Part shown: piece after piece, positions 13,501 through 63,032 of the stretch
How positions within the stretch are numbered: the first letter of the stretch is position 1
How the letters are laid out: every line of letters begins with the position of its first letter
Source: Paraspadella gotoi
Taxonomy: Eukaryota > Animalia > Chaetognatha
Direction: 5' to 3'
DNA length: 64,000 bases
NCBI GenBank assembly: GCA_051294375.1
Contig: CM119265.1
Span: 17,263,172 to 17,327,171, forward strand
Made by a program: the position numbers and the translations under genes
The notes under the pieces: model-generated
Told to the model about the DNA's origin: nothing
Databases searched by the model: none
The model's input: only the letters and a program-made list of their open reading frames with translations

Positions 13501-16500
13501 CCATTCACCCCCGATCGTTGCCGACAGTAGGTTGAAACGAGTAGGGGCCGAGCGCCAATTCCACGCCCCGAAGGTGACTCGTCCAAATCGCGTCGGTCGC
13601 GCGAAATTGACGTCGAGTCTGTGCGGGCAGGCGCGGCTGAGCGTGGAATCGCAGGAGCCGCCGCCATCGCCGAGTCGTAGCCAAGCGGACGACCAAACGA
13701 GTCCGTCAAGCGCGCGACGCGGTCCCCAGTAAGAAGACCACGACGACGTGGCGTTTACGATGGCTCCGGCGACTTTACCGGAGCAATGATGTCCACCGCG
13801 GTCGGACACATGGCCCATCCCCGTCGCTGTGGTTGTCCAAAGAAGAAAGGCTACGAGTACTTGAATAAGTTTTTTCATTGAGAAACAAGTAAAATTTTTT
13901 TAAAATATCAACGAAGGAAGTAAGCGTGGTTTATATTCGCGATAAAAAATATTATTCGTTGTAGTCGTGATCGAACCTAAACGGATCTGGATCATCGTGG
14001 GTCACGGTTTTTATTTAGTCTGCCTGCTAGGAGAAGACTCGCAAGACATGGTTGAAAAAAAAAAAGTCGTCTCACTGCATTCTTTTCTTCTTCCTATTTT
14101 TTTTTTAAGGCAACGAACCCTCGAAGAAAGCGACGGCGGAACCCGCGATAACTCGGACGTAGATTCCGAATACGACGACGACGACGACGATAGCGACGAC
14201 GACCTCGACGAGAAGGAGAGGGCGAAACGAAGATTAAAACGGACGACTGCCAAATACCAAAAGTCCACAGGTTTTTTTTTTTCGGCGTTCGCGCTTTTCT
14301 GAGTTCACAAGAAATAAAATGATAAAAGGAAAGGCGTCAGATTTTCAGCTGACCTAGTTTTATTACTTTTTATTTTTGTTTGTAATGCTGTAAAAATTAT
14401 GTGATTGAAAAGCATTTAGATCTAAATTTTTAAAGGCCAATTATACTATAAATTCTATTGTTAATCCTTTCCTTTACGGACCAGGGGAAACGGTGACATC
14501 AACGAGGCAATTGATTCACGATCCCTTGGCGGTCATCGCTGAACAAGGAATTCAAGACGATTATCCTGAAGGAGCCGGAACAGGTTTGGGTGAGTTCCTT
14601 AACACGTTCAGCCGATAAATAGAAAATGACCTCACCTGGAAAAGACGATAATTTTGGATTAAAATCTCAAATCTTTTTAATGATTACTTTGAGATATTCC
14701 TATTTTTTAAAAATAAAAAACCTCGAGCCTGAGCCGACGATAGACCTCTAGTTTTAATCTTTTCACCCCTTTTTTCGTGTTGCAAGCTCTATTTTAAATA
14801 TTTTTCTCATACGATTTGGTTACTTCTAAAAAAACATAATAAAGCGGCTCGGGTAGAAAAGACTCGTTGCTTTCCCTCGGGGATGGGCACTTACCCACTC
14901 GACCGACGTAACCGATGCCGAGCAGCAAGGCCGCAACAATCCGGATCTCTTTAATCATTAACGATCTCGTCGCGCCTTTTGAGATTTTCTCCCGATTTGG
15001 ATTCAGGGAGTCACCGCGATCCGTATCTCGATGACGAAGAAGACGAGTCTTTTTCTGACGACGACGGCGATTTCCCCGATTCGCCCTTCAACTTTGGCCG
15101 CAACGGCTTTTGCCACGGAGGGAGGAGTCATGGAGGTAAAGAGAAGAGGGGAACGAGTACTATATTGAATTAGTAAAATTTAAAAATGAAATTTAATTGA
15201 CTCAAAATGGATTGTTTCTATTTTTTTTTTCTTTCTGACAATGGATAAGATGGCATTGCCAACGATTTTGTTATCGGAACCTGGGATCCGAATGAGGCTT
15301 CGACGGCGGCTCCCTCGTGGATTCCTTCGCCACGCCCACCCTTGTCCTTTGCCGTCGGGGAGGAAGGAGACGCTTCTCCGGAGAAACCGCCGAAGGAATC
15401 GATGCCGGAAATAAGCTTCGGCGTTCCGGCCGTAGGTTAGAAAAATGAGAAGATAAAGGCGAAATTTTTTACCCAACTCCTTGCCTTCGTTTCACTCTCA
15501 GATATACTAAACTAAAGCACCTGGGCTTCCTCGGTTGCACTTATGCACCAGCGGCCGATTTCCTTTGTCAAAGTATTCCTTTTACTTCTCGATTTGGATC
15601 GGGTTATTTTTTCTTCGGTTTCTCTTTCCTTTTTATTTTTCTTGTTAATTAGGGTATTGTTCATTTTATCGCTCTTACTTTTTGTTATTAGATTCGCCGT
15701 CCTCGACGGTGAAGATCGACACTTGGGAGGACATTTCGCGTGATATGGCAGGGAGCGGCGAGGCGGGGATGGGATGGAACGACGCGCAAGGCATCGCCAT
15801 CACCGCCAGGGGAACCAGAAAGGTTAACGAAGGTATATTTTCTTTATTTATGTTATTATTTTTTCGTTTGTTTCGTTCTTATAATTTATATAATATTCTA
15901 CTGCAAAAAATGTTTCGATCCCTCGTTTTTCACAGCTCCTCCGGCTTCAACCAACGGGGCCTCACAATTCCCTGGGTATAGTGACGACGAGGACATGTCG
16001 AGTCTTAGCGACGACGACGGACTCGGCCTCGCCGCCGGTGATGAACTCATGATACTCGATTCCGGGATGGGAGATTTCAACTTAGGTAAATCCATTTATA
16101 GGTCGAAGATTTTTTGTTAAACTTTACTTTATGGCAACACTCGGGTTGCCTGTGATTCCCATTTGGAAGTGGCATCTCTCTGTTGGCTTTGAGGGCTTCC
16201 CTAGGACGGTCTCGCTTTGTCAACGCAGAGGGAAGTCGTAAGGACTGTGGATGGAACACAACGCCTGGGATGGTGTGTTCCCCCTCTGAGCCAATGGAAT
16301 TGGCTGAACGATGATGGATGTGAGGCGGCGTGAATATACCACCACAACTTATTCGTTCGATTTTTCAGCCTTTTTAGGAGAAACGTCAAACCTTAATGCC
16401 GGCAACAAAATTGAGACGAAGTTAAACGGAGAAATTCCTGCAACTTCCGGCAAGAAGAAAAAAAACAAAAAAGGAAAAGGAATCGGGAAATCGAAGAAAG

Positions 16501-19500
16501 ACTCGTCCCTTCCATCTCCTCCTCTCTCGTCTATCGCCTCTTTCGATTATTTCCCTCCTGCTGAAGAGAGCGATGAAGAAGCAGCGCCCGTCGTCGACGC
16601 CTCTGACGGCGCCCCGTCCCGTTCTCAAGCGGGCGCCTTTAATCATACCGATCCTCTCGCCAGCGGCAGCGTCCGCCTTTTGTCGCACTCGGAGAAGATA
16701 ATCGACGTCACAGAGGAAAATGGGACAGAAATAGGTGAGAAGAACGAATGGTTAGACGATGAGCATCGATACGAATTAGAAATTGTCACGGGTGTATCTT
16801 ATTTTGCAGCTTCCATCGCACCCACGTTGAAAGATGATGCTTCGTTCAGTCATAATTCATTGGATCGATCTTACGTTGAGTAAGTTCATCATTCTATCAT
16901 GTTGCTCCTCTCCACCTCGAAGAGGCAATGTGGTGGAGAATATCCATGAAGAATCCCGGTTATATTTGGAACCATACATTTTTTTTTAACTCTCCTTCAA
17001 TTTTGAAAAATTTTTCTCCATCAGTTCAAAAGCAATTTGTGATACGCAAAGCGCTTATAGCGAATCCTCCATTAAAAGTCACCACCAAGTCATTCACAAC
17101 TCGAGAAGTAACGAAGGTTGGTGTCCATGCATTGTTAGTTTCAGTGCTTATTTTCTTAAGCACATTTCCCTCGGACTTTCTCAGAAGTAATGGAAACCGA
17201 ACGTACCTCGTTTGATACCAACGGTCGTCCAACTGATGGCAAGTGTCTTGCGAATTTTTCGAAAGGAACCGCAGAACCAATGGACATATTATTGGGGGCG
17301 ACATCAAAGGTTATTTGTCATCATGTTATTTGTATCCTATTGACACTCTATTGACTCTCTCCTAAATTTAATATATTTTCGTCTGGTAGTTTCCTTGGAA
17401 CTGATTCTGGACTCGATAAATTGAAAGCTCGTTTTCTAATATGAAGACTTCTGTACTCTCAAGACAGTCACTCTGGGCTTGCTCACCTCAGTGTGCTGTC
17501 TTGGGAGGGGGCATGTGTGGCGAATCCTAAATTCGCCTCCCATATAGCTTGGTGAAACTCAGCTGGTCCCATTGCTTGAACAGCTCGTTCACCAACCATA
17601 AGTTCCTAATTCAATTCCCTCACGGTCACTCTGGTTAAGTGTGATGGTGTTGACGTAAAGGTCCAAAGCCCTGAGCGCCAGCTAACGGGAGATGCCTCAC
17701 ATTCAAGGGAACACATATGTCCCTGTTGCCCTTACGTCATTTTTTTTTGCAGCTAACTGTGAATATTGAAAGCGGCTGTGATAAGGGAAGCGAGGCTGGT
17801 CCTCTATTCGTCTCTCAATCGATGTCGTCAACGACTCAATCATCGCTACCTCTCTTCTCACTCGATGTTCAAGTTCCTCTGGAAACTCACCCTGGACCCA
17901 GTCCCTGTCTCATTCTCCAGGTCGGAAGGATGTTTCCTTCAACTATGACTATGACTATGAAATAACAATATGAAACGCAGTAATTTTTTTTTTTTTTTTT
18001 TTTTCATTAAATGTTTTAGGCGCTAACGATGTCTAACTCGAACGACGGCTTCAACCTCGAGCGCCTCGAGATGATCGGGGATTCCTTTCTCAAACAAGCG
18101 GTCACTACCTTTCTTTACTGCTCATATCCTCAGATGCACGAAGGACGTCTTTCGTTTTTTCGAAGCAAGCAAGTGTCGAACTACAATCTCTACAAGCTTG
18201 GTCCGTTTCATTTTTGCCCTTTTTGTTTTTCCTCAATCGATTTAGCTCAGTGTCCGCTCCTTCCAGGAAAACGCAAGGGTCTACAAGAATGCATGATCGC
18301 GACTAAATTCGAACCGTCGGAAAATTGGTTGCCGCCAGGCTTCAGCATCTCCCAAGACAGGGCCTTCCCCATCGCCAAGTGGGCCGTGGAGATGGCCAGG
18401 AAGGAGGCGGAGAAGGCGGCTAAGGCCAAACTAAAGGGAAAGGGTAAGAAGTCCAAAGAATATTCGCCATCAAAAGAGGGACAAGCCGATCAAGAGGCGA
18501 CTGCCTCTTCGGATGACGGCAGCGGCGCCGCTGAGGGCGCGGACCAAGCTGCCGCCGAGATTTCGGCCGAGCAAACTGAGAGTGATGAGCCGAAGGGTGG
18601 TGAAGAAGCGGAGACCAATGGACAATCTGAGAACGTCGAGAACGTCGAGGAGGAGGCTGTTGAAAAAGAGACTGAAGAAACTCCGGACGACGCATTGGCT
18701 GCGCCGACGAAAGCCAAGGACCTAGATTTCACCAAATTACACGCCACGCTGTATAAAGACACGGACATAGAGCATCTTCCATATATCCTTCAAGTGAGTT
18801 TTGATAAAATGACACGGGCCGTATGAGCCAACTGGTTATCAAAATTTTTCCCTAGATTCAGCACACGCTTCCCGACAAGAGTATCGCCGATTGCGTGGAG
18901 GCGCTCATTGGGTGTTACTTGACCGAATGCGGTCCGCGGGGAGCCCTGTTGCTGATGGCGTGGCTCGGCCTCCGCGTTCTGCCCAAGAAGGAAAAAGTGA
19001 TGGTTGACTTGGACGAGGAGGATGCTGACAAACTGATGGAGACGGGGGATGCCGATGACCGGACCGAAGCTCTCGATCCGGCGGCCTTGACTTGCGGTTA
19101 GTCGTAGGAAAAAACTTTGAATTTCTTACATATTTTCTTTCCTTCATTTTTTTTTATCCCTTTTCAGCCCTGATAGACAAAAACTCCGGTCCTTTGAAAG
19201 AAGGAGCGTCTTGGATGCACTTACCCAGACCACCGTCGCCGCTGTTGAACCATCCCAAATCCCATGAAAAACTCGAAAATTTGCTGACGGGTTTTGTAAA
19301 GTTCGAGGAAAAGATCGAGTACAAGTTTAGAGATCGGGCTTACTTATTGCAGGTGAGAAAGCCATTCAATTTTCGATGATTGTTTAAGCCTTTGTAAATT
19401 GTTTGTTTTTAACTATACAACCGAAAAATTTATTTACACTAAAGTTTTTTGCTTTAACCGATTGTCACGGAATCGTCAATCCGGATTTTACTTTTAATCT

Positions 19501-37417: not shown

Positions 37418-37802
37418 CTATATCCGTAACTCTGTTGTTTTCCCTTTTCTGCTTTTAATTAACTCCTTCCCGATACCAATTTATTATCGCTCCGTTGGAA
37501 AATAATGTACGTTTATTATCAAAGGCTTTTTCTGTGATAAAAAAATAATTAATGATCTAAAAAAGCGAAATCTTCTTCTGTTAGCAGTTTATACAGAGAT
37601 TTTGAAAAATTATACTTAATCTTAAATATTTACAAAATTTTTTATCTTAAATTCTGGGGGATAAATCTTCACAATTAAAAAAATACGCACAAAGAAATCT
37701 CGGGTGATTAAAATATCATCTGACAGTAAATCCCCAGTGAGGTTGGGAAAACTTTTCTCCGCCATTTGTTTTTACGGAGATTACAAATTTCGAAGCACAA
37801 CA

Positions 37803-37837
37803 CGGAGGCGTGGGTTCGAATCCCACCGCTGCCACCA
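37803..37837 (+). pseudogene. tRNA-Leu 3'-half fragment with genomically encoded CCA
   Basis: CGGAGGCGTGGGTTCGAATCCCACCGCTGCCA+CCA matches the eukaryotic tRNA-Leu(NAG) variable arm, T-arm and acceptor end; 5' half absent. Confidence 0.8.
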
Positions 37838-38189: not shown

Positions 38190-38833
38190 TGTGCACTAGG
38201 GTGGAGTGATGAAAAGATTGAGCGATGGAACAATGTTTTTTTGCTGCCTTTGTATATGTAATATAAAATAATTAAGCCCTTTTTTAAAAAAAAATTACAT
38301 AACAGTATCATTAATTAAATTTTTTTTATAGTAATATCCTTATAAAATCATAAAATTTTAAAATCATATTTTTTTTAATTTTAAGAACTGTTTTGGATTC
38401 GCCGGAAAAAACTGAAAAACTTTTGTAAAATATGTTTTATGATATTTTTAGGTTAAAGCTGCGAAAAATGACCAAAACGTATCATATATATATATCATAT
38501 AATAGTTTTTACTACAAAGTAAAGAATTTGACCTTTTTTTTCCATTTTTGACGCTGAAGACATTGAAATTTTTAATAACATATTTTATATTTTTGATCTA
38601 ACTTTTTATGAAGAATTAGAATCTTTAATAAAAATTTAAAAAAAACTATTTAGAAAATTTATCATTTTATAAGAATATTATTATAAATATATTGTAATTA
38701 ATGATACTGTTCCCCAAACAATATAAGCAAAATATTTTTTGTACTCCTTAATCATACTATCTCACGTCTAAATATCCTTGTTTGATCACTCAAATAAAAT
38801 TTATGTTCCCCAGTGCTCCACTCTACTGTGCAC
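38190..38833. mobile_element. Degenerate MITE-like element with terminal and internal inverted repeats
   Basis: gtgcactagggtggag ... ctccactctactgtgcac ends; internal IR ~38300-38360 vs ~38655-38711; related copy at 12586-12960. Confidence 0.55.
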
Positions 38834-38880
38834 GGCAAGGGAACATTTTAAACACCCAACAAAAAAGAGGCATCATGGTA

Positions 38881-39920
38881 GAGCCAAACTTCGTCAATGG
38901 GGTGGGTCAGAAGTTTGATTTGGGAACCTTTCCAAATGAAACTTCATACATTTCTAAGAAAAATTTCAATGGACCAAAATTTTTTAAAATGGCTAGAAGC
39001 ATTAGTAATTAATTTTTTAATATTTATTTATAGATAGAAAATGTCAAAAAAATTTTTTTGAATTTTGTATTTTTAAAAGCAGATTCAAATAGCTTATAAA
39101 AAGTTATTTGCACAAAGTATAATTCTTTTTTCAATATTTTGATGATAAGTGGGTTAAAATTGGGAAAAACCTTAAAAAATCATCATCATCATCATCATCC
39201 GATGATTTTAGCAGTTTTTACTAATTTTTAATAATAATAGATCAAAATTTTAAAAAGTTGTAATTATATTTTTTGCTTAACTTTTTAAGCTCTATCAGAA
39301 TCAATTAAAAAAACTTAAAATATCCCAAAAAGATTTTTGACATTATATAGCGATAAAAAAATAATAATTAACTAATTACTCATGGTTCGGAACATTTTTG
39401 CCATTAAAATTTGAATTCGGTCGGCTACCGCTAATCATGGGTCATGAAAAACATGCAGAAAAACAGCCCTTTACTTTCGGAGTCATCTTTTATTTGCTGT
39501 AGCCGACCAAATTCAAATTTTAATGGGAACAGCATTAAACTAATCCATTATTGGTATTAATTATTGTGTTAAAATATTTTTTTGCAAAAATGTTCCGAAC
39601 CATGAGTAATTCGCTATTTTTTAATTTTTTTTAGATATTTTAAGTTTTTTTAATAGATTTTGATAGAGCTTAAAAAGTTAAGCAAAAAATATAATTACAA
39701 CTTTTTAAAATTTTGATGTTTTATTACTAAAAATTAGTAAAAACTGCTAAAATCATCGGATGACGATGATGATAATGATTTTTTAAAGGTTTTTCTCAAT
39801 TTTAACCCACTTATCATCAAAATATTGAAAAAACAATTATACTTTGTGTAGATAACTTTTCATAAGCTATTTGAATCTGCTTTTAAACTTCTGACCCACC
39901 CCATTGACGAAGTTTGGCTC
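38881..39920. mobile_element. Foldback non-autonomous DNA transposon (GAG...CTC termini, possibly Sola-like)
   Basis: Perfect 36-bp TIR GAGCCAAACTTCGTCAATGGGGTGGGTCAGAAGTTT, plus ~250-bp internal IR (39074-39325 vs 39634-39885) and nested IRs at 39373-39610. Confidence 0.85.
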
Positions 39921-40166: not shown

Positions 40167-41862
40167 ATGGTTGACGGCAAAGACAAAAAAGAGGAAGAGT
40201 CGACGATGACGACGAAGACGATGCCGAAACAGGCGTCGACGATGAATCTGACGATGGGGATGCTCGTCGCCAACAACATCAACACCAACAAGAAAGACAA
40301 GAAAGATAAGAAGGAGAAGAAGGATAAGAAAAAGAAAGATTCTCAGGACACGGATAGCCAGAAAAAAAACAACAACCGTAACGATAACGATTTGGGACAA
40401 AACCAAAACGCCAAGAAGAAGGACAAGGACAAGAACAAGGACGACAAGGAATCCAAAGGTGGCAAAGGCACCCAGGATGAAAGAGGACTCGAGTCTGGGA
40501 CGACGATGAAGGTCAGTTCGACTCCGAACCCCACCCCACCCCTTTAACGAGGCCACCCTGCCTGCCTTCTGGAGATAGGATAGCTGAGAAGGTCTCACTT
40601 TACTGTCTTTGTCTTAATATAATATATTAAATGAATGGATAATTTTTATATTGGTTGTACCAATTTCATATACATATAATATAATATTGTGGCAGCAAGA
40701 CTTAAAGCTGCCTCACTGCTGTCCGTCCTCAGCTCGTCTCCAATGGCTGAGCAGGCTAAATCATCTCATTCCACTCGCTGCGTCACGGGTTTAATCCCTG
40801 GTATCCCGGTTCTGGCTTAAATTGACGGTGCCGGTATAAACATGCCAGTGACAGGTGGCGGTCACTGAGGGTCCGCAGCCCCTACGCCAGTTGGTGAGAT
40901 ACCCCGCGCCCCGGGTATCACAGGCTATCCTCCCGTTGCCATAAGTGGTGAGCCCTACTCTCGAACACGCAACCGCTGCGCACCGTGCGCCCACGCTTAC
41001 GTCGCTTAGGGTATGCATATCACGCCTATGCCCTACTTCTCTGGTAAGCTCCAGACTCGCTCGCTCGCCGCTCGCTCTCACTATGGCAATGAGATCAAAA
41101 CCTTCTCTCAGACATCTCCTCAGGATTTGAGGCCCCTGTGGAGAAGTCTGGTGGGGGATCCTGTGGCAGCAAGACTTAAAGCTGCCTCACTGCTGTCCGT
41201 CCTCAGCCTCGTCTCAATGGCTGAGCAGGCTAAATCATCTCATTCCATCCGTGCGTCCCGGGTTTAATCCCTGGGTATCCCGGTTCTGGCTTAAATGTGA
41301 CGGTGCCGGTATAAACATGCCAGTGACAGGAGGCGGTCACTGAGGGTCCGCAGCCCCTACGCCAGTTGGTGAGATACCCCGCGCCCGCGGGTTATCACAG
41401 GCTATCCTCCCGTTGCCATAAGATATTAATATTTTAATATTCCAGAACAGGAACCAAGGCCCGGATATGACTCAAATGGCGACGAATCAAGATCCGGCCG
41501 CTGAAGAAGCCCCCTCGCCGGATCAGGCCGACGCCGAAGCGGAAGAGCACGAGGAGGAGGACGACGTAAGGAGAATTGCTCGAGCCCCAATCTTCGACGA
41601 TTGTTATCTTCTTTTTTTTTCTTCTTTTTATTTTTATCGCAGATCGAAAGATGCGAAGTCGGCGCCCACGATCCCGAGGAGATTCACAAGATCCTCACCA
41701 AGATCCACTTCCCCTCCATGCATCCCATGTTCCTCGCCGAGAACGTGGCGCCCGCCGTTCTGCCCTCCAATCTTCTCTCCGATCACGAGATGGTCACCAT
41801 CTTCGTCGATTGTCTCTCTCGATCCCCGAACAAGTTTAACCTTTTTCCCAACGACAAGAGGC

Positions 41863-44526: not shown

Positions 44527-44534
<8 letters not shown>

Positions 44535-45010
44535 CCAAATTATACCAGTTAACCAAATTATGTCGGTTGACCAAATTATTGACCAATTTATGCAAGTTGA
44601 CCACATTTTGCAAGTTGAACAAATTATAAAAGTTGAAAAAATTATGCCAGTTGACCAAATTATGCCTGTTTACCAAATTATGCCGGTTGTCCAAATTATA
44701 TCAGTTAACCAAATTATGCCAGTTAACCAAATTTTGTCAATTGACCCATTTATGCAAGTGGACCAAATTATGCCAGTTGACCACATTTTGCAAGTTGTCC
44801 AATTTATACAAGTTGAAAAAATTATGCCAGTTGACCAAATTATGCCAGTTGACCAAATTAAGCATGTTGACCAAATTATGTCACTTGACCAAATTACATC
44901 AGTTCACCAAATTATGCCTGTTGACCAAATTATGCCAGATGACCAATTTATGCCAGTTGATTAAATCATGCTACTTTATTAAATTATTAAAGTTGACCAA
45001 ATTATGCAAG
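44527..45010. repeat. 18-bp minisatellite, consensus GTTGACCAAATTATGCCA
   Basis: About 25 degenerate tandem units read directly. Confidence 0.92.
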
Positions 45011-45464
45011 TTGGTATTGGCACAGCAACTGGTAATGATAGATAGATCAATTGAATTATAGATTTTTTTTCGTAGATTTATTAAGAAGTCTGTTTTGATT
45101 GGTTATAATCACAAATTGAGAGTCAGAAAAATTACCATGATTTATCACCGGATTATTACCGCTTACTTATTATCGTAGGCAGATCCGACATTGTTTGCTC
45201 AAACTCGTTTATCTTTAATTCGTCGCACTCTCGCTCTTCTTGTCGATCCGGTTCGACGGCGGACTTTTCAGTGCGGAACTCGGGGGCCCCGATTGAAGAG
45301 AGGATCCGGTTTTGCTGTCCGGCAGAGACGTCGAAATGCGGAGGCGGTTTTCGAGATCGATTTACGCCCATCCATCCTCGAAAGATCTTGGTGGGCTTGG
45401 GAGAAAATTGGATCGGGTCGACCGACTTTTTTTTTTTTCTGAATCAAATCAATTTTAATTTTTT

Positions 45465-51284: not shown

Positions 51285-54110
51285 TTATAACCAAACTACC
51301 TCGTCATCCGCTGCGTTTATGTTTCTTGAGCGTTGCGACAGATTGAGGTTAGGTTCCTTAGAGAGCGACCTCGATTGGCGGACATGATCTGTGCGTTTCG
51401 ATCGCCAGGACGTGTCCCTTGGCGACCAAACCTGTCTCTTGCTGGAGGAGCGTTTCTTCTTTCGGCCACTCGCGTTTTTCGGTTTAGCTGGTGAGACGTT
51501 TCGGTCAGTCGCGTTAGACAACGACGCGTCCTTTCGATCCTCCCTTCCTTTTTTTCCGCCGACGCCGGAACATCGCCCACTCGATCGTACAGTTTCCCTA
51601 TGATTTTGAGACGATTTGACTGTTTTGTTGACGTCCCGATTCTCGGCGTTGAAATCCATAGATTAAGAAAGATCAGTGTTGGGCACGGAGATACGAGACG
51701 GATCTGACTGGTGAAGTTCGGTATCAGTTGAATGGCTGAGGCTCGAGTTAAAATTTTTCTTACGCTCCAATATGAATTTTAAAAAAAGCTCAAATTTGAA
51801 AAAAAAAATAAATAAAAACGTAAGAATTAGCTACGAAATGCCTAACTTAGCTTTTAATGTTGATGATGAAAAAGGAAAATTTAAAAAACAAAACGTAAAA
51901 AACAAATCAAAATTAATCTTTGATATCGTGTACACTGTTCGTGTACAGTGTACACTTAACACTTACAAGCTGTCAGCAAGCGTAAAACAATATTTCTTGT
52001 ATCAATTCCTTGGCCGATTAAAAACATAAATACGCTTGTTTCTTTCCTTAAAATTAAGGAGCTTATCATAAATTTAAAATTGATATAGCATGACGATAAA
52101 GGAGATGTTAAAAATAATTATTAAATGACATCGAGATTCTCACGGTCTACCGATATAAGGAAAAAAACAAATAAAACGAAATAAACGTATAACCGCAAGT
52201 TGACATTTATGCGTATGTATTTTATCACGATACGTCAGCTCTTACAAAAAATTACAAGTCACAAGAGCATTATTGTAATTTTACGTTTAATTTTAATTTT
52301 AAGAGCGTTTCTTCACTTCACTGTTTCTACCATGTTGGACTGAACTATTTTTTTTAAAAATCGGTGTAGTAAGATTTATCTTTGGTCACTTTGCTCTTCG
52401 CGTAACAACTGGCGGGCGTGTTGGGCATTCCTGGACCTCGGATCGCTTCGCCCCTAAGTGCAAAAACTTTGTTTTAATCAAGGATTGTTAACCAAAAAAA
52501 TGAGCGAGAGATACCGTTTGTAAAAAATCCCTATGCTGTGATCCGGAATGGGATTAGACTCGTAATATCGCTGGCGCATGTCGTCGTCATCGTCGTCGAA
52601 CTTTTTCATCGGCTTCGCTTTTTCCTTCGACTACCGATGGCATCAATATTGTTTTATTTCCTATTTTTCTTTTTATTTAATTATAATTCAAAATAGACGC
52701 AAATCACAGGACCCGTCATTTACTTTTGTTGCCCGGGAAACCGCGTTCTGGTTCTTCTTCTGTAAAGTGAAAACCAGGATAAAAAAATGAAAAATATATC
52801 ACTAACTAAGTAATAAAGTCGGCTAAAATTTACCTTCGGGTCTTTTTTCTCAAAATTTTCATTTTGACCCTCTGTTATTGCCGTTTCTTTTTTGTCTGTC
52901 TTGCTTATTGACTTGCTTTTGACTGACGTAGCATTCAGGTTTCCACTTTTCAAATCTTTAGCTTTGAATGATATGTACTGTAAATAAGTATTAAAATTGT
53001 TACAGAAGGTTACCACCCATCTCATTTGCTTCTGGCCGAGTTCGCCTCGGACGACTTTTAAAAAATTGTCCGAAGTTGCAATACATTACGAAATGATAGG
53101 TGCCACCGTATCCGGCCGTACAAAACCGTTTCTGGCCTTTTAGTCAGTCCATAGTTCTTATTCGAGAACCGTTCTGTCTGGGACTCCTGCCCTATTGCTT
53201 TTTATGAACAACGGTTGGCGCCGCAGAAGAGTTTTTCGGTATTAAGCTCCTCCGTGCACAAAAATTCTTACCTGAATATCTTTTGAGGGTTTGCTACGAT
53301 TGAAAGCAGTGGGCCTTCCCTGTACGTATAAGTATCAAAATAATTTTGTTCGTAATTACTTGCATCGCTTTAATTTAACATAGAAAACGGCAAAATTGCT
53401 TAATATTTAGATTGCATATCTATGTCTAATTGTATAATATATATATATATATATGTATATTGCGGCGGTATATTCACACCGCCTCACATCCACCATTGCC
53501 CCAGAGGGGGAACACAGCATCCAAGGCGCTGTGTTCCTTCCACAGTCCTAACGACTTCCCTCTGCGTTGGCAAAGCGAGACCGTCCCAGTGACTGGCGTC
53601 ACTGAGGGTCGGAAGCTCCCAAAGCCAACAGCGAGATGCCCCATCCCAATGGGCATGAAAGGCAACCCGGCTGTTGCCATAATCTGTCTAATTGTCTACT
53701 AGCTATGGGATTGACTCAACTGATTTTGAGCTCTTTCGGCTCCCGCCATTAGTGATCTTGGAACCCATCAATTTATCACTGAAGAACGGTAAAACAGATG
53801 CCAAGGTACTAAAAATCGTTAAATTCCTACGATTTTAGTAGAACAAAAAACTTACTTGTAAATCGAGTTAACATTTTTCCGTTCTGCTGTTAATACGTTT
53901 GCTAATTCGTCCTCAAACGCCGAGTCTGAATAAAGCGCTCTTTACGAATTTATTGATAATCGAACTTACTAATTTAATCAATTAATGCTTACAATTTTTA
54001 CGGTTTCGTCGCATTTCGAGCTTTTTACTTCTAAACTATATTCGAGTATTCTATCATTTAAATTTTTCACTATTTTGTCAAATTGCTTTAAAATCGCATT
54101 TTTCGCAGTC
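51285..54110 (-). CDS. Possible multi-exon gene of unknown function (Ser/Lys/Arg-rich)
   Basis: Several exon-like blocks with splice borders (53991-54110, 53855-53935, 53272-53325, 52833-52978) and ORF 51285-51659; no recognisable domain. Confidence 0.3.
53467..53682 (+). mobile_element. Twister-retroelement subfamily A; ribozyme remnant 53566-53629 lacking the cleavage site
   Basis: GTTGGC-AAA-GCGA-GA-CCG-[P1/UAA/P2 deleted]-CAGTGAC..GTCACTG-AGGG-TCGGAAGC-TCCC-AAA-GCCAAC; ends GTTGCCATAA; TGTCTAATTGT on both flanks (53423-33, 53685-95). Confidence 0.8.
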
Positions 54111-54642: not shown

Positions 54643-57600
54643 TCAGATGTTACCCCATTTGTCCAAGATTTGCTGGCAATATTTGGGCGTTCGGTGTTTA
54701 TGCATGGCGGCCTCGCAGCTCGACACCAATTCCTTGGTGCTCACGGAACCGACTTGCAACAGAACGGAGCACACCAGTTCCTGAAGAAAAGAAAAAAAAA
54801 TAACTAAGGAAGAAAGCTTGAGAGATGAAAACCTCACTTGAAAACTCTGTCGAGGATCGTCCATGTGGATCAGAAGACCTTTGTAAATATCCTCATAATG
54901 ACCTCGAAAGGTCATCGTGTCAAAGTCCTGGAAGAACGCTCGTGAATATAAAAGTTCCGATTGAGGAAACCAAAAGATAAACTTACAGGTCTCATGGCAA
55001 TGTTGTGGAAGAAGGATTCGAAGATGGAAAGAGCTGCGGCGCGAACTTCATCGTCCACGTCGTCCATTCTGTTAACAGATTTATAGAGAATAACGCTATT
55101 AGTATTAACTGTAACAAATCACATAGAGATGTGCGACAAGCTAGAGCAAGATTGTGATCACGAATGAGCTAGTTAAAAAGTAAGTGTTTTCATTGACAAT
55201 ATCAACAAGAACGTCCCGACCTTTTCAAAAAATCCGGATACAGTTTGTGAAGCCGATCGATGTTCAAATCTTCGCCGCAGGATTCGATGAGCGCTGAGTA
55301 AAAGAAAATAAAACATTACTTTCTTCCATGAACCAAAAAAACAAAAGATTGTCATCTCACCCTTCAACACTTTGCAAGAGATTTGCCGAGTGTCAGGGGA
55401 GTCGTCCTCCATGGTGCCAACGATCTGCTTGACGATTTCTTCTTCGTGTTTCAGCATCGCTCGTTTCGAGAGCGCATGCGTCAGCATCAATTGCCACAAA
55501 CACGCGACGCAAGTGGTGCGCAAAACGGCTAAAAACAAAACTCGGAAAATTATTTTTTTATAATTCAAGTTTTCTTTTGTTTTTTTTTTTTTTTCATCGC
55601 CGTCTCACCCGCGGTTCGACCCGCCTTCCACACCAGATTCGGCATCACAGCGTCGGTGAGAAGAATCTCCGCGTAATCACCCAGTAAGACTCGTCGCGAC
55701 TCGATTGATCCTGACGAAATTAGAACCGTCACAAAATTGCATGAAAAATAAAAACAAACCAAACTGCCCAGTTTGTCAATCATTTTTTCAACCAAACTTT
55801 CAACGGAATGGTTCACACAAATTATCCTTTCAATCGGAACCGGCATTAGTGAAGAGGCGTATGAGAAGGCCGAAAAGATGCTGCCGCAACTCGAGATCCT
55901 TTTCGGGATTTAGGTTAACGACGATAATGGGGACGACTTCGTCGATGATATCCGCCACGACGTCCTCGCCTCCCGCGACGTCATCCCCCGCCAACGCCGC
56001 CGGCGAGGCGATGGCCCGCAGCATCAGCGACTCGAAAAGGCGGCGCTCGGGCGAGAGGGCGTTCCAGTACTCGTGGTCGGACTTTAGAAATTCGAGCGCG
56101 AAGCCGGCGTGGCGGCGGAGCAGCGCGGACACGTCTCCGTCCAATTGCTGCGTGTAGAATTGCGTTAAACTTTTGCATTCAGCCCATAAACACATTGAGA
56201 CACTCATATATTCCCCTAACCTCCGCTCTCGCCAATTCTTCCAATGCGCGCCCGGCGTCTTCCGCAACTTCCGGCGAATTTGTCAACGACTCGACCGCGA
56301 CGACGATGAGGAAGAGGAGTTGGGCGACGTCGTTGACGTCGGCTCCGAGGTTTACGACGATGGCGACGACGCAAGAGAGGAGGGCACGCTGGGTGTCGGA
56401 TGCGAAACACCTACATACGTTGCGGGGAAATCATAACTTACTTATTTACTTACTTTGATTTTAAAAATTATAAGGATTAATTAACGGAAAAAGAATTAAA
56501 CTAGCCTGAGAAACCTACCACATAATTTCTGGTTCCATGAGCGCCCGCACAACATCCGGAGCCACTTCGAGCAACGGCGTCTTTTCGGTTCCTCTCAAGG
56601 CGCCCGACAGCACGCGCACCACGAAGGCGGCGCCGGTTGTTTTCCTCAGCGCCTCTAACAAAAGCGGCCACCAAACGTCCGGCGTTGAAAAGTAGCCCAC
56701 CAACTCGCTGGTGCGAAGTGCGAAGGTTACAACTTCGGCCTCTTCGTCCCTGCATAAAGATTGTTCTCAACGTTTTTGCTTTGAGATTTTATTATATCGG
56801 GTTTTTATATGAAAAATTGCAAGATTACTTTAAAATTTTAAAATAAATGTAATAATAAATGTAATAAATGTAATAATAAATGTAATGTAATAATTTTATA
56901 TATGATGAGAGATCAATCATAGAAAAATATCATGTTATCAATTTGACAAGTTGTCAATCATCCTAAGGTGTCAAGTGTGAAAATCTTTGTAGGTAGTCAA
57001 GAGAAGAAATAAAGAGAAAGAAACAATGGAAGATAAAAAAAATTTTAAAAAAAGGGAAGAAAATCAAAACGAGCAAAGAAACAACTAGAAAGAAAGGAGA
57101 AACAAAGAGGGGAAGCATGGGGACGGCCGTAAGCCGCCTTGGGGGCGTGGAAAACCCTCAAGCCTGGTTCCAAGCCCAGGACCCGTTTCATGGCTGCTAG
57201 AGGGGGTTAAAGAAGTTGCGGATAGCACACTTCAGCCTAACTTAGCGCCTTATCCACATATATAAAAAAGAAAACGGAAGAAAAAAACGAGAGACCGCTT
57301 GGACTCGATCTCATAAAACAAAAACAAAATTAAAAAATCAGCTTCACAGTAGACCTGGAGCCTCTGTAAAGACCGTCCAGCAACCCCGGCAAATGCTGGT
57401 TGATGTTGTCCTCCGACTGCAGAATGAGGTAAAACATGAGCCTCGCCGCCATCTTACGGGTATCGGCTACCCAATCCTTGAGGTCGTTGACGGCAGCGGG
57501 AAGGATTCGAATCAGAGATGAGTAAATGAGGGATCGGCATCCAAGATTGGGCCTTTCGAACCCTGTGCGAGGAAAGGGGTGAAGAGCGATCGTATATAAC

Positions 57601-59430
57601 GTAAGCCCATGCTGCTTGCTGATTTTTGTTGTTTTCTATCTTCACTTATTTCATTCACCTTTTGGATAATGCGCCGGCATCGGTTTCGGATAATTGATCT
57701 TGTCTTTCAGGTCTTCTTCGTTTTCCTTCTCGTACTTGACGCCGGCGTCGTGCCAGAAGGCTCGCGCCGATTCTGCGATTTCCGGCATTTCGTCGGCGAA
57801 GGCGGCCAACAGCAAAGGGATAAAGCGATGCCAAAACGAATACCTGAGAGTTGAGCGAATTTGCTCATAAATTATAGATTGAATTTACAACAAAAGCAGC
57901 TTGGTGGCCTCGTAATTCTCGCCTGTCGGGCAACTCCAAAATCCAGTTGCCGATGACATCGACGACGGCCTGTCGCACGGTCGCCGCCCTGTCGAACATC
58001 CGCTGAGCGAGATGGCAGATGACGTCGTCAACACTTTTGTTGTTACCGAAGCGAACGACATCGCCTATTCGACGAGAGCGAACATAAAAATAAATATAAT
58101 AGTTATATTTAAATATACATTTAAATTTCCATAAATTCATAAATTAATAAATAGTTTTTAAAAAATTTAGACCATTTCGCATAATAAAAAAAATTTTCTC
58201 TTTTGTTTTTCTCGTTACTAAAGCTCCGAGACGTACGAATGTTTTCCGTAAAAACAAAAGGTCGTTCGTTATGTTTTGCGAAACTCATTCATTCACATTT
58301 ACATAAGAAATAAGTTATTTTAGTGAGAATTAAGATCTATTTTAATATCAGTACAAATGTATCAGTAATAGATACAGTTTTCTCTTCTTCTTCAGTGCGA
58401 TCGTGGTTTGAAATATTTATGTATCTTTTACAAATAATTTTTTAGTGCAATGAAAAAAAATCTTAATTCCTAAAAAGAAAATCCTTTTTAAAGTTAATTT
58501 TAAACTCAAAATAAGAACCTGTGGCGGTGATGAAAGCCACACGAACCCTTGAGTGCTGATGAGAAAGGCCCTTAGTCAGCGGATCGATCAACTGTTCGGA
58601 ACACTGATGGAAATAGGCGGGCGCCGACTTCGCTAGGAGCGACGCGCAGGCGCAAGACATTTTCTTTAAATCCGGAAAGGCGTCAAGGAGCGTACGTCCC
58701 AGGATCTGAACGAGTTTGAGAAAGAAGTAGGCGAGTTTCTTATTAGTTTGTTTTCGCCTTATTTTTCTTTTTGTGGAGGGGTAGATTACCGTATCAATTT
58801 TTTAATATGAAATAAACTACTCATTAGTAAAAAGGGAAAAGATTTACCTTGACGATATCTTCGACGTAAGGGGCGATTTTGTCGGAGACAGTTTCCACAA
58901 TCTCCACCAACATCTCGACGAGTTGAAGACGAATCTCTTCGCACGGTTCGACGACTTCCTTGCCGGCCAACCTCTCCACCAAAACGGCTACCACATAGGG
59001 TAAGTGTGACTCGGAATGTTGTGAGCGTCGGAGAACGTCTCGGGTATAGGCGATCGACAGTTCCCGACATTTCTCGACTGGGTCGTGGAAAAGTCGCAGG
59101 ACGGTTTTGTGAATCTCGCTAAATTTAAAAACATCCAATATATCATCATAGTTTGAAAAAAAAAAGAGGTTGAAATTTATCGAAAGAAACCTACTATTAC
59201 CAAAAAACGCGATCCAAAATGGCAGGATCCAATTTTAATGTGTCGTTGGAGATTCCTTGGATCGATCTTTTCCTTATGGCGCGGTTGTTGTCTTCGAGAC
59301 AATTCAAGTGTCGTCCTATTTCCTTGAGGACGTCGCCGGCGCTTGCCGTCGTCGAGTCTCCGCTTTCCGGCGAATACAGTTTCAAGTGTCGCGTCTCGTC
59401 GTCGTTGATGTCTACTGCGTCAACCGCCAT
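54643..59430 (-). CDS. DNAAF5: Dynein axonemal assembly factor 5 (HEATR2), multi-exon
   Basis: RHLNCLEDNNR, LLRLFHDPVEKCRE-like segment, VEPCEEIRLQLVE, LSHQHSRVRVA, LAQRMFD..VRQAVVDVIGNWILELPDRYSF, PNLVWKAGRTA, LLIHMDDP HEAT repeats. Confidence 0.88.
57147..57257 (+). ncRNA. Twister ribozyme-like motif, P3-type (antisense in a DNAAF5 intron)
   Basis: GUGGAAAA..CCUGG-UUCCAAGC-CCAGG..GCUA-GA-GGG-GGUU..AGCC-UAA-CUUAGC-GCC-UUAUCCAC; T1 UCC/GGG; P2 irregular. Confidence 0.6.
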
Positions 59431-59788
59431 CGTCGAGTTTTTTCTATAATTGACTTCAGGTTCCGAAAAGAAGTATGACGCGGTTTTAAAAGCCTTTGAC
59501 AGGAATAACTTTTTAAACAAATATTACCGCTAATGTCTAAAAGCGTTTAAAAGCCTAAACGCATTTACATTTACTGAGAGTTGCAAAACGTATTGTATTT
59601 TCAGTTTGTAACAAAAGTCAACATTTAATCCGCGCATTGACATTGTGAAGGCAGTGCGAAAGAAAACACCATTTTTTTTTGGTTCAATAAATTAAACAAT
59701 TTATAAGGGCTATAAACTTGACGCCTCAAACCAGTAACTTTGTCACAAAAGACAAACAATAAAACTTTTTTTTGTGATTACGAGAAAA

Positions 59789-60031
59789 TTATGGCAATTA
59801 TGGCAATGGGGAGACATGTGTGATATGATTCCCTGGGTTTGAGGCATCTCCCGATAGCTGGCGCTCAGGGCTTTGGACCTGAAGAAAACCACCCCATGTT
59901 ACTGGCGTGTTTATGCCGACTCCATCACACTTAACCAGCGTGACCGTGAGGGTTGGTGAACGAGTCCGAGCCATTGGGACGAGCTGATTTTCACCAAGCT
60001 ATACGGGAGGCGAATTTAGGATTCGCCACAC
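59789..60031 (-). mobile_element. Twister-retroelement subfamily B, downstream of the NEK4 stop
   Basis: Homologous to 17514-17734; tail is (TTGCCATAA)2 on the minus strand. Confidence 0.82.
59857..59939 (-). ncRNA. Twister ribozyme, P5-type
   Basis: GCUGGU-UAA-GUGU-GA-UGG-AGUCGGCA-UAA-ACAC-GCC-(imperfect P3)-CAGG-UCCAAAGC-CCUG-AGC-GCCAGC; predicted cut between 59913 and 59912. Confidence 0.78.
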
Positions 60032-60066
60032 AATAGTATTTCGTTGTTTTTTTTTGTTTTTTTAAT

Positions 60067-63032
60067 TTACTTCAAATTAAAAGCCGAGTCTTCACAAAAT
60101 TTCAGTTGCCAAATTTTTCCAGAATACAGATCAAACTTCTCTTGTCCTAATAGGTTGAGCAAGCGTTTCTCCATATCATTTTCTTCAACATCTTCTAAAA
60201 GTTCAAAAGCCTGTAAAAAAATTAAACATTTCTCGAAAATCAGCATCGTAACAGTCCACAAAATTGTAAATTAAATTACCTCCGCCAATAATTTAAAGCC
60301 CAATGCCTTGATGCAATCTTTTCTCAATCTGTTTATCCTGTCCAACAGTCTTCCCGAGGCGGAAATAGTCATGGTGCCATCGTAGCGTTGAGGTTTCGAA
60401 CCAAGATCATGCACGTTGTCGACAGGTGTTGGCTCCAGCGTTCGCAACTGATCATCTTCTGGGATTTCCGCCGCGACTAAAGTCGCGTCGCCGATGTCGT
60501 CCAAACTGTCGCCGCAGATCGCTTTCGTAGTCGAAGCGTTTCCCTCCTCTTCCGGAACTTCCTCTAAATTGAGAGTGCTATCGAGAAGCTGGATGAAGCT
60601 GGACATCTCCTTTTTCTTGGCACACGTCTGTTATGAAAATATTCAACTGTTCTTAAAAAAAAAGTTTGTTTTTTATCTTTTTTTAAAGTTTTTTCTTTCT
60701 CTCTTTCTTTCCCCTTCATTCATGTTTTTATAAATTAAAACTTATTTAAAACAAAATTTTTTATCTCTTTAATAAATGATATTTATTTTTCAGTAAATAA
60801 GAAAAAATGATTTCAACACCTTGCTATCGGAATCCTCATCTGAATCGACGGAACTGGCGGAGGATTTGGCTTCTCTGCTCCTCCAAACGGACTTGGGTGC
60901 CGAAACGTCGTTGTCCATATCTATCGGCGACGCTGCGCTTCTGGAGCTGACGTCGCTGCTGGAGCTGGCCGTGGACGTGGGTCGTCCGTCGGGGACGTCT
61001 TCGCTGCCTCTCAGTCTACGCTGCTGCGCCTCTTTCTCCGCTGCCTCTTTGTTCCTCTGTCTTCTTCTCTCTCTCGCGCTGCTGATTCCCGTCGGTGGAA
61101 CTTCTCGAGATTCGGTTGCGTCTTTGATCGGCTGCTGCTTCGAGGGCGGCGGCTTCGGAAGCGGACGCAGATCTTTAGGAGGAGCCTCTGCCGCCTCTCC
61201 CCCAGGACGCAGATCGTCTGGCAAAGCCGCCACTTCCTTTCTCTCAAGCTCCTTTTGTTTCCTTCGTCGCTGCCGAGCGGCCGACGCCGGCTTTTTCACC
61301 AACGCGCGGTCGTCCTCTCCATTTTCGCCATCTTTGATGGGTTCGGTCACTTTCTCATCTATTCGGCTGACCTCCCTCTTATCGTCTATCGCCCATTGAG
61401 GAGGACGAACGTCCCCTGGTTTTTTTGCCAACAAATTCCCGCCATCGACTCGCAGATCATCCTGACCGGCGCGCTCTTTGGGACCCCAACGCCTTCGTCC
61501 CGCATTGACCCGAGGTGCTGGAGGCGACGATTTCGCCCCGGAAGTTAACGCCACTGGTTTTTTTGGGGGCGAAAGTGCGGGAAAACGAGAATCTTCCTCG
61601 ACTCGCGGGCGTCGCCGCTCCAGTGGCTGCGGCACCGCTCGAGCGTTACTTCCTCTTTCTGATCCTGTAATGAGGCGATTTTTAACTCAGGCCTTAGATA
61701 CAATAACATTCTTTTTCCTCTTTCTCGTGGCAGACGGGTCACCACGGTTACTTTGCCCGGGTATTGTCAATGACATTAAACCGTCTAGACAAAGCAATAT
61801 TACTAAGGAGTGAGGAGACCATAAGGACTTGACCATGGGGACTCCACAGTACTATTGCTTTGTCCAAGCGGTTCTAATTTATTGCCAATCTTCAGGCAAA
61901 ATTTACGTGATGACATGCTAACAAAGATAAAAATAAGTATACGTTAACTTTTTAAGTAAATGTTTTATTACCGGCAGATGCAAGCGATGAACGTCTCTTT
62001 TTTGTCGTTTCTAAGAATTGAGCGATGTTTCTTTTAATAAAGGCGTTTCTTAAAATTTGATTGACGCTGGGCCTGAGGTCAGGGTTTTGATGCAGCATTT
62101 GTCGAATGAGTGTGCAGAGATCGGCGCTGTAGTTTCGTGGCATAGCCGGCATTTTTCCTTTCAATATTTTATACACCAGTGAGTTCATGTCTTTAGCATT
62201 GAAGGCGTGCTTCAAAGTTGCCATTTCGTAGACGCAACAACCAAGCGCCCATACATCGGATTTGTGGTTGTACGGTTTGTTGGAAAAAAGCTCGGGACTC
62301 ATGTAATAAGGAGTGCCAATGAGAGTGCTTGCCATGTCTGTGCTGCTGTCAAGAACGCGGGCGATACCCAAATCCCCCAACTTAACAATTTTGCTTTTTG
62401 TCAAAAAAATGTTTTGAGTCTTGAGATCTCGGTGAAGAATGTTCCGTTCGTGAAGATACTGCAGTGCCATGGAAATTTGGACAAACCATTCAACAATCTA
62501 TAAAAAGGTATTAAAATTAAACAAGTAATCTAAAAAAAAACAGCTGATTTTCACTAATTACAAATTTTCAAAATATTAAATTTTTATCAACTACGTAGGT
62601 ACTAAGTAGTTGTAACGTAGGTTCGAGGGAGGGAATGGTCATTTTCTAACATTTGAAATAGTTATAAAAATTTTCTACCAATTTCATAGCACTTCTCATA
62701 TGGCATACCTGTTTCTCCTCCAAATAGGCTCCGTTTTGCTTTTTCAACCGGTCGTATAAGTCGCCTCCTTCGCAGTATCCCATGGCGATACAAAGGAAAC
62801 CATCCTTGCTTTCAAAACTGTCTTTGTAAGCAACGATGTTTGGATGTTTTAAGGTCGATAGGAGTTTGGCTTCTTGCTCTGCGGATTCCCGTTCTTTTTT
62901 GGAAGAAGTCGACAAATCTATTTTTTTTAGAACGTATTGTTTTTTATCCTGTCGATGTTTGACTAACCATACTTCGCCGTAACTTCCCTTTCCAATAACG
63001 CGGATTCGATTGTAGTCATTCAGAGTCATCAT
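60067..63032 (-). CDS. NEK4: NIMA-related kinase 4
   Basis: VIGKGSYGEV..AEQEAKLLSTLKHPNIV..CEGGDLY; HRDLKTQNIFL..GDLGIARVL..LIGTPYYMSPELFSNKPYNHKSDVWALGCCVYEMATLKHAFNAKDMNSLVY; C-terminal ..IWQLKFCED. Confidence 0.92.

Follow-up and report, generated by a model that had tools for sequence, protein, structure and literature searches.

The window, that is, the whole stretch of 64,000 nucleotides of Paraspadella gotoi DNA analysed here, carries two neighbouring genes on its minus strand, NEK4 (coding span 60067..63032, stop codon TAA at 60069-60067) and DNAAF5 (first coding exon 59200..59430, ATG at 59430-59428), and 636 nt separate the NEK4 stop from the DNAAF5 ATG. The names given to these genes in the preliminary description hold: all 120 best listed matches of the kinase exon in a protein search were animal proteins with 74-85% identity, most of the named proteins among them are labelled NEK4 or NEK4-like, and the gene downstream of NEK4 matches Pfam TPR_DNAAF5 (E 2e-26). 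Dicer and further genes of the window were also supported by Pfam. The preliminary description had placed a sense-oriented twister between NEK4 and DNAAF5, starting about 35 nt past the NEK4 stop, with a predicted cut about 155 nt into the 3' region and about 480 nt before the DNAAF5 ATG. These distances were measured as 36 nt (60030), 154 nt (59913^59912) and 482 nt (59430), respectively, and both the motif and NEK4 lie on the minus strand. The motif was also correctly located within 59789..60031, but the true element spans 59799-60030, and the 10 additional nucleotides at its 3' end belong to a flanking duplication. The features of the locus are as follows.

60061..60066, minus strand: ATTAAA hexamer directly after the NEK4 stop, inferred to be a possible poly(A) signal that precedes the element
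60031..60034, minus strand: left 4-bp target-site duplication, ATTG
59799..60030, minus strand: copy A, the flagged element, read as a solo LTR of 232 bp, TGTGGC...TTGCCATA
60009..60027, minus strand: 5' hairpin of the copy A LTR; the C and D copies have a hairpin of different sequence in the same place
59924..59944, minus strand: competing hairpin (-12.4 kcal/mol), expected to tie up the P2 strand together with one arm of P5
59857..59939, minus strand: twister fold of copy A, type P5, including both P5 arms; the core spans 59866-59930 and the predicted cut is 59913 (U)^59912 (A)
59914..59921, minus strand: 8-nt linker replacing the P1 hairpin, with A.A at its ends and self-complementarity over its inner 6 nt
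59795..59798, minus strand: right 4-bp duplication, ATTG

Read along the minus strand from 59939 to 59857, copy A presents a P5 arm, GUGU (P2'), GA, UGG (T2'), the 8-nt linker and U^AA, followed by ACAC (P2), GC (T1), P3, the P4/L4 hairpin CAGG-UCCAAAGC-CCUG and the second P5 arm. Its helices are P2 (GUGU/ACAC), T2 (UGG/CCA), T1 (GC/GC), P4 (CAGG/CCUG) and P5 (GCUGGU/GCCAGC). The U^AA cleavage site and the general-base G with its adjacent A were found both in copy A and in a second copy of the window, C2, together with the pseudoknots T1 (GC/GC) and T2 (3 bp) and with all four pairs of P2 and of P4; the closing P5 helix was paired in 88.9% of cells. A strict twister descriptor retrieved two loci in the 64 kb, copy A and 41295-41358, and none in any of 100 block-wise dinucleotide shuffles. 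A loose descriptor retrieved three loci against a shuffle mean of 2.1, which is not above chance, and therefore only the strict result is counted.

An Rfam scan of the whole window reported no twister at cut-off. Copy A scored 20.3 bits against Twister-P5 (RF02684; cut-off 37.6, E 0.44) in a register that differs from the fold proposed here, and the C1 region scored 17.7 bits against twister-P1 (cut-off 67.2). A type-P1 reading with GGCA/UGCC as P1, prompted by the Rfam alignment, was discarded, as its GAGA loop is unable to form T2. Judging from its sequence, the flagged stretch contains a twister fold of type P5 with a predicted cut site, and the original twister call is sustained by the strict descriptor and by the covariation of helices across related copies.

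Comparison of the window with itself showed that the flagged element is a repeat, one of six related copies of 217-259 bp, and a profile search (nhmmer) of the window returned exactly these six copies and no others. Two of them, C1 and C2, are the LTRs of a single element, and the copies other than A are listed below.

17516..17734, plus strand: copy B, the closest relative of A, sense within a predicted Dicer intron; flanks CATG/CGTC, no target-site duplication
16130..16346, minus strand: copy D1, read as a solo LTR, antisense within the Dicer gene; perfect target-site duplication AAGT/AAGT
53461..53681, plus strand: copy D2, read as a solo LTR, starting TGCGG; flanks ATAT/ATCT
40688..41420, plus strand: element C, complete two-LTR element of 733 bp; flanks ATAT/AGAT
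40688..40943, plus strand: C1, 5' LTR of element C; predicted cut site after 40837
41162..41420, plus strand: C2, 3' LTR of element C; intact type-P5 core 41295-41358, predicted cut site after 41312

The 5' ends of the family read TG(T/C)GG and the 3' end is TTGCCATA in five of the six copies, copy B ending in TTGCCCTTA. The termini are TG...TA, not TG...CA, and the terminal inverted repeat is imperfect. C1 and C2 are 98% identical, A and B 88.7%, and D1 and D2 89%, with 67-76% between subfamilies; over aligned columns, copy A is about 75% identical to C and 67-74% to D. Among the five loci, the flanking 4-bp duplication matches at four of four positions in A and D1 and at three of four in C and D2, and is absent in B, the background probability being 0.012 for a full match and 0.10 for at least three of four. 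The last 9-10 bases of the copy A LTR are repeated after its right ATTG; if this repeat is a slippage duplication, the right flank may instead be ATTT, a match at three of four positions. Copies lie in sense orientation at three loci (A, B and C) and in antisense orientation or intergenic DNA at two (D1 and D2), and this mixture means that orientation carries no signal. Apart from A, the copies occupy introns and intergenic DNA, facing either way and without a link to 3' ends.

The twister core is undamaged in only one of the six LTRs, C2, and four carry core deletions. In B, a 30-nt deletion takes out the P2 strand, the T1 strand and P3; in C1, a single nucleotide is missing from the P2 strand P2'; D1 has lost the cleavage site, P3 and part of P4; and D2, which keeps P3, T2 and P5, has a cleavage-site deletion in common with D1. 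D1 (antisense) and B (sense) thus both stand within the Dicer gene (16130-17734) with the ribozyme core gone, and copy B ends 18 nt upstream of a predicted 3' splice site. No Pfam reverse transcriptase or integrase domain was found in the 24 frames scanned, of 75 window frames of at least 120 aa. An exact 22-nt pattern had no match in metagenome contigs, and a degenerate family pattern had none in viral contigs. Three metagenome loci that matched the degenerate pattern were attributed to chance, as they had no upstream twister module, LTR pair or match to the window.

Element C consists of C1 and C2, identical at 250 of 254 columns, and of 218 non-coding bases between them, in which two further features were recognized.

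40946..40955, plus strand: primer-binding-site-like sequence TGGTGAGCCC, 2 nt past the 5' LTR, the interior beginning AG-TGGTGAGCCC
41140..41157, plus strand: purine-rich tract ending GGGGG, polypurine-tract-like, 4 nt before the 3' LTR

The polypurine-like tract ends in a run of five G but has three pyrimidines among its last 12 nt. The primer-binding-site-like sequence presumably shares a longer likeness with an arm of tRNA-Trp. It starts with TGG, and its first 6 nt are those of the tRNA-Trp primer binding site given for the Gypsy element GyRex2 in the available text of PMC3587641. The Rfam search yielded no tRNA match to this site, and ARAGORN found no tRNA in the window. Like a TRIM, element C is shorter than 1 kb, has two LTRs and is devoid of a coding region; its anatomy is that of such a miniature LTR retrotransposon, with a predicted twister fold in each LTR, damaged in C1 and intact in C2. 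The circular fold computed for the C monomer had a z-score of -2.9, with 62% of bases paired and none of 60 shuffles as low. Upstream of copy B, a purine-rich G-run occurs in the same register as in element C. The resemblance of this upstream DNA to the interior of C was not significant (21 of 500 shuffles as high, for one of eight flanks tested), and copy B is only tentatively regarded as a 3' LTR.

This anatomy bears on whether the repeats are LTRs at all. The copies might instead derive from a short non-LTR retrozyme or from a Penelope/Naiad pseudo-LTR, with element C as a tandem dimer separated by a spacer. The retrozymes known from animals are non-LTR elements, as described in the accessible parts of PMC7761336, and the family ends in TA rather than CA, both of which would fit such an origin. 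The copies nevertheless share sharp terminal inverted ends with 4-bp duplications, and the interior of element C has TGG 2 nt past C1 and a G-run 4 nt short of C2; the animal non-LTR retrozymes are presented in the same parts of PMC7761336 as having no LTR, primer binding site or polypurine tract. We consider a non-LTR origin very improbable. These results suggest that the flagged stretch is probably a solo LTR, that the family it comes from consists of small non-coding LTR retroelements with a type-P5 twister fold in their LTRs, and that this damaged copy likely sits behind NEK4 as a bystander.

Other repeats of the window were noted alongside this family. A second, unrelated twister-like element lies at 57117-57255 (plus strand), antisense in a DNAAF5 intron. 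Besides a P4/L4 hairpin CCUGG-UUCCAAGC-CCAGG, it contains a GAGGG motif, and a UAA...GCC segment recurs in similar form about 110 nt away. It scored 19.3 bits against Rfam Twister-P5 and fails the twister descriptor; it is perhaps a degenerated monomer from a tandem twister repeat. At 37791-37837 (plus strand), the 3' half of a tRNA-like sequence ends in CCA and partially matches the Rfam tmRNA family (E 0.016). Its minus strand resembles a primer binding site starting with TGG and directly follows a stretch of about 300 bp with CCAAT and TATAAAA boxes, which is possibly the 5' LTR of another element. Nested AT-rich inverted repeats with arms of up to 185 nt and 90% identity, MITE- or foldback-like, occupy 38300-39920 and have a related copy at 12580-12970, and 27 copies of an 18-bp unit form a tandem array at 44531-45013.

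The predicted pairs of the twister were then followed across copies. On five copies, 93.5% of 108 cells were paired, a level reached in none of 500 shuffles, and slid controls were paired at 32-43%. Seven of the 26 pairs had changed on both sides, although one of the seven (P2, copy D2) is a gap-placement artefact and, with five to six related copies from one window, such counts reflect few events. T2, for instance, is CCA/UGG in A and B, CCG/CGG in C and CGG/CCG in D2. This covariation supports, but does not prove, an RNA fold maintained in the family.

In place of a P1 hairpin, the family has the 8-nt linker, whose self-complementarity extends over all four pairs in B, C1 and C2; in A it covers the inner three. 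Among background 8-mers, 1.4-2% are as self-complementary as the former and 4-5% as the latter, and all changes of the linker between copies are transitions. The linker alone folds no hairpin, and its central pairs are unable to form within one strand, which suggests that P1 might be formed between two LTRs. We give about an even chance to the idea that P1 is completed by pairing between both LTRs, so that cutting would be favoured only where a transcript contains the two. When the whole of element C was folded, the linker duplex had a pair probability of 0.001 and a penalty of 4.1 kcal/mol in nested folds computed without pseudoknots. Given the robustness of twisters, the dimer idea may be unnecessary.

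A further helix is suggested by the cut-site U and the four bases before it, which pair with a distal strand past P5, as GGCAU/AUGCC in A and GGUAU/AUACC in C, and at four of five positions in B. With one compensatory change in its favour and a computed pair probability near zero, this helix over the cut site could act as a brake, as a distal P1 or as a clamp joining two cut ends. Folds of whole LTRs leave P2 unformed, and enforcing P2 and P4 costs 4-6 kcal/mol.

Every catalytic and pseudoknot position is kept in copy A, but it shows the defects in P3 and P1 that had been described, with a U.U mismatch and one additional base in P3. In addition, the C15-G19 pair (Osa numbering), which is C-G in C1, C2 and D2, is C.U in A. 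In the mutant matrix of Osa-1-4 (Kobori 2016, PMC5113685), whose values were obtained by counting cells of the supplement and checked against A7U, G19U retained a relative activity of 0.57 after 2 h, C27A+G47U (the T2 of copy A) 0.83 and A28C (the loop of C2) 1.00. The authors of that study equated a moderate drop in activity with a much slower rate (PMC5113685). By analogy with Osa, the loss of the C15-G19 pair in copy A would be attenuating rather than lethal.

The upstream hairpin is predicted at -12.4 kcal/mol in A, against -6.3 in B and -2.5 in C2, and in A it is transcribed first and would hold P2'. In natural twisters, according to the available text of PMC11662667, mean cleavage fell from 0.85 to 0.40 where an upstream hairpin was present, 94% of the candidates tested were active, and P1 was dispensable, defects in it having no effect. 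The attenuation anticipated in the preliminary description is in agreement with the lost C15-G19 pair, the damage to P3 and this hairpin, and in its context copy A is expected to be a slow cutter or to be inactive. Given the high share of active natural twisters, some residual activity is quite possible, and copy A may well cut in vitro.

The Clec2 3'-UTR hammerhead is a sense ribozyme located shortly downstream of a stop codon. On this model, the element behind NEK4 had been proposed to remove the poly(A) tail or to split a NEK4-DNAAF5 read-through transcript. Copy A resembles the Clec2 case in that a sense ribozyme, here a predicted one, stands just past a stop codon, but differs in belonging to a mobile repeat. 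A co-opted or incidental regulator would act if NEK4 mRNA ran through the element and the cut at 59913^59912 removed its poly(A) or parted the DNAAF5 read-through. The sense orientation, the gap of just 636 nt between the two genes, the retention in copy A of all catalytic and pseudoknot positions and a second ATTAAA at 59629, downstream of the element, would be consistent with it, as would the many defects that twisters tolerate (PMC11662667, in the part available). However, copy A has decayed where the intact copy C2 has not, its upstream hairpin is predicted to block P2, and copies of the family occur in both orientations with no tie to 3' ends. Moreover, a UG-rich stretch lies at the edge of the element about 30 nt past the first ATTAAA, so that this signal may end the NEK4 mRNA before the element is reached. 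We therefore regard host regulation as quite improbable; the motif belongs to a solo LTR of a dispersed repeat family, and this part of the preliminary description finds no positive support here.

If the twister serves the element rather than the gene, a mechanism can be proposed by analogy with plant retrozymes. In the available text of PMC4918200, plant retrozymes are circularized, primed by tRNA and integrated by Gypsy proteins; they leave solo LTRs, and their ribozyme is blocked in the fold. Similarly, a transcript through both LTRs of element C would arise from its own promoter or from host read-through, and the latter could be supplied by the host because element C lies in sense orientation within a predicted intron (about 40512-41445). 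With both LTRs cut at the same U^A, an RNA of 475 nt lacking terminal repeats would be released. Ligation would close this RNA into a circle, a tRNA would prime its copying from the primer binding site, and a helper of the Gypsy type would carry out the copying and the integration. Recombination between LTRs, or short cDNAs, would account for solo LTRs, copy A among them. The full reading, an animal LTR retrozyme family that uses twisters to cut in both LTRs, moves as a circle of about 475 nt with a Gypsy helper, and silences its solo LTRs through a palindromic P1 and distal-helix gating, is offered tentatively and falls a little short of an even chance.

The deletions described above bear on this proposal. 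D1 and D2 share a cut-site deletion yet each has its own flanking duplication, and for this reason the family seems able to move without cutting. This keeps alive the view that the family is an ordinary TRIM whose ribozyme is a passenger, acquired in a single capture for which a Penelope-like element or a non-LTR element may have been the source, and now dispensable or being lost; such a TRIM would use an LTR-internal promoter and normal strand transfer, with no circular RNA stage. Core deletions in four of the six LTRs are in line with this view. Promoter-like signals are also present: the cut sites of element C (40829-40841 and 41304-41316, plus strand) read TATAAA and a CCAAT-like box occurs near position 55 in copies A, B, C1 and D1, so that signals for a promoter may coincide there with those of the ribozyme, and some of the conservation could be owed to the promoter. 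On the other hand, compensatory changes in T2, P2, P3, P4 and P5 between subfamilies with no more than 67-75% identity point to long selection on the RNA fold, and an active twister in both LTRs would remove the terminal repeat needed for strand transfer, as outlined in the available text of PMC4918200. A passenger ribozyme in an ordinary TRIM is thus an unlikely explanation, and by analogy we describe the family as LTR-retrozyme-like, although it falls outside the hammerhead-based definition of an LTR retrozyme.

In the literature covered, which included the available text of PMC7761336, PMC6765202, PMC9695139, PMC8501958, PMC10085705 and PMC9901934 and of several preprints, we found no LTR element with a twister and no account of an animal LTR retrozyme. 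A 2026 preprint, in the portion available, places LTR retrozymes "primarily" in plants, and accounts available in part report twisters at the 5' ends of RTE elements and in viroid-like circles. The family and element C carry the interest of this window, and the link to NEK4 probably matters little. The window also contains a ready set of natural variants for testing: a copy with an intact core, a copy that is probably attenuated, a copy with a point deletion and three copies that have lost parts of the core.

The closest parallel is with the plant LTR retrozymes (Cervera et al. 2016, PMC4918200; comparison with the text available), which are also non-coding and shorter than 1.5 kb, with two LTRs, a ribozyme at the same position in each, a primer binding site, a polypurine tract, 4-bp target-site duplications, solo LTRs and a ribozyme blocked in the predicted LTR fold; the counterparts of their two priming signals in element C are the primer-binding-site-like sequence and the polypurine-like tract. 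They contain a type III hammerhead, whereas the family described here has a type-P5 twister fold in an animal host, and Rfam searches of the window gave no hammerhead match. Plant LTRs and interiors measure 300-400 and 300-600, respectively, in that source, against 217-259 bp and 218 bp here. The site in element C also differs from the tRNA-Met primer binding site, as used by plant retrozymes, that is printed in the available text of PMC3587641; the same text describes non-canonical termini in GyRex2. Plant retrozymes form RNA circles, whereas for the present family a circular fold is predicted.

TRIMs, including the animal Helenus and Ajax elements (Kojima 2024, PMC10886601, as far as its text is available), are likewise shorter than 1 kb, with two LTRs and no protein, and have a primer binding site and a polypurine tract where element C has its putative signals; the Gypsy-dependent Helenus also shows 4-bp target-site duplications, and solo LTRs flanked by such duplications occur. 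The LTR cargo in this group is a tRNA or 5S promoter, in contrast to the ribozyme fold and TA ends found here. With type-P5 twisters (RF02684; PMC10085705, available text), the family shares the order P2'-GA-T2'-P1-U^AA-P2-T1-P3-P4 closed by P5, with the catalytic positions present in A and C2, but the long P1 hairpin of RF02684 is replaced by an 8-nt self-complementary linker, a distal helix is proposed, and the score lies below the Rfam cut-off.

Twisters have been described in another animal retroelement, the T-variants of Perere-3 (RTE) of Schistosoma mansoni (PMC8501958, available text). These non-LTR elements have a single ribozyme, at their 5' end, and their target-site duplication lies at the cut site, unlike the twister inside both LTRs of the present family. 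A short palindromic helix completed by a second copy is also found, as helix III, in the dimeric type I hammerheads of animal non-LTR retrozymes and Penelope-like elements (PMC4209133, available text), but these belong to another ribozyme and element class, and dimer dependence in the present family is only inferred. A dimer-gated twister would, if true, be new for its class. In the available texts of PMC4918200 and PMC7761336, LTR retrozymes come from plants and use hammerheads, and animal retrozymes are non-LTR hammerhead repeats. If our reading is true, the circular-RNA route of LTR transposition would have arisen again with an unrelated ribozyme, and the twister class would have a second role in retroelements besides 5' processing in RTE elements.
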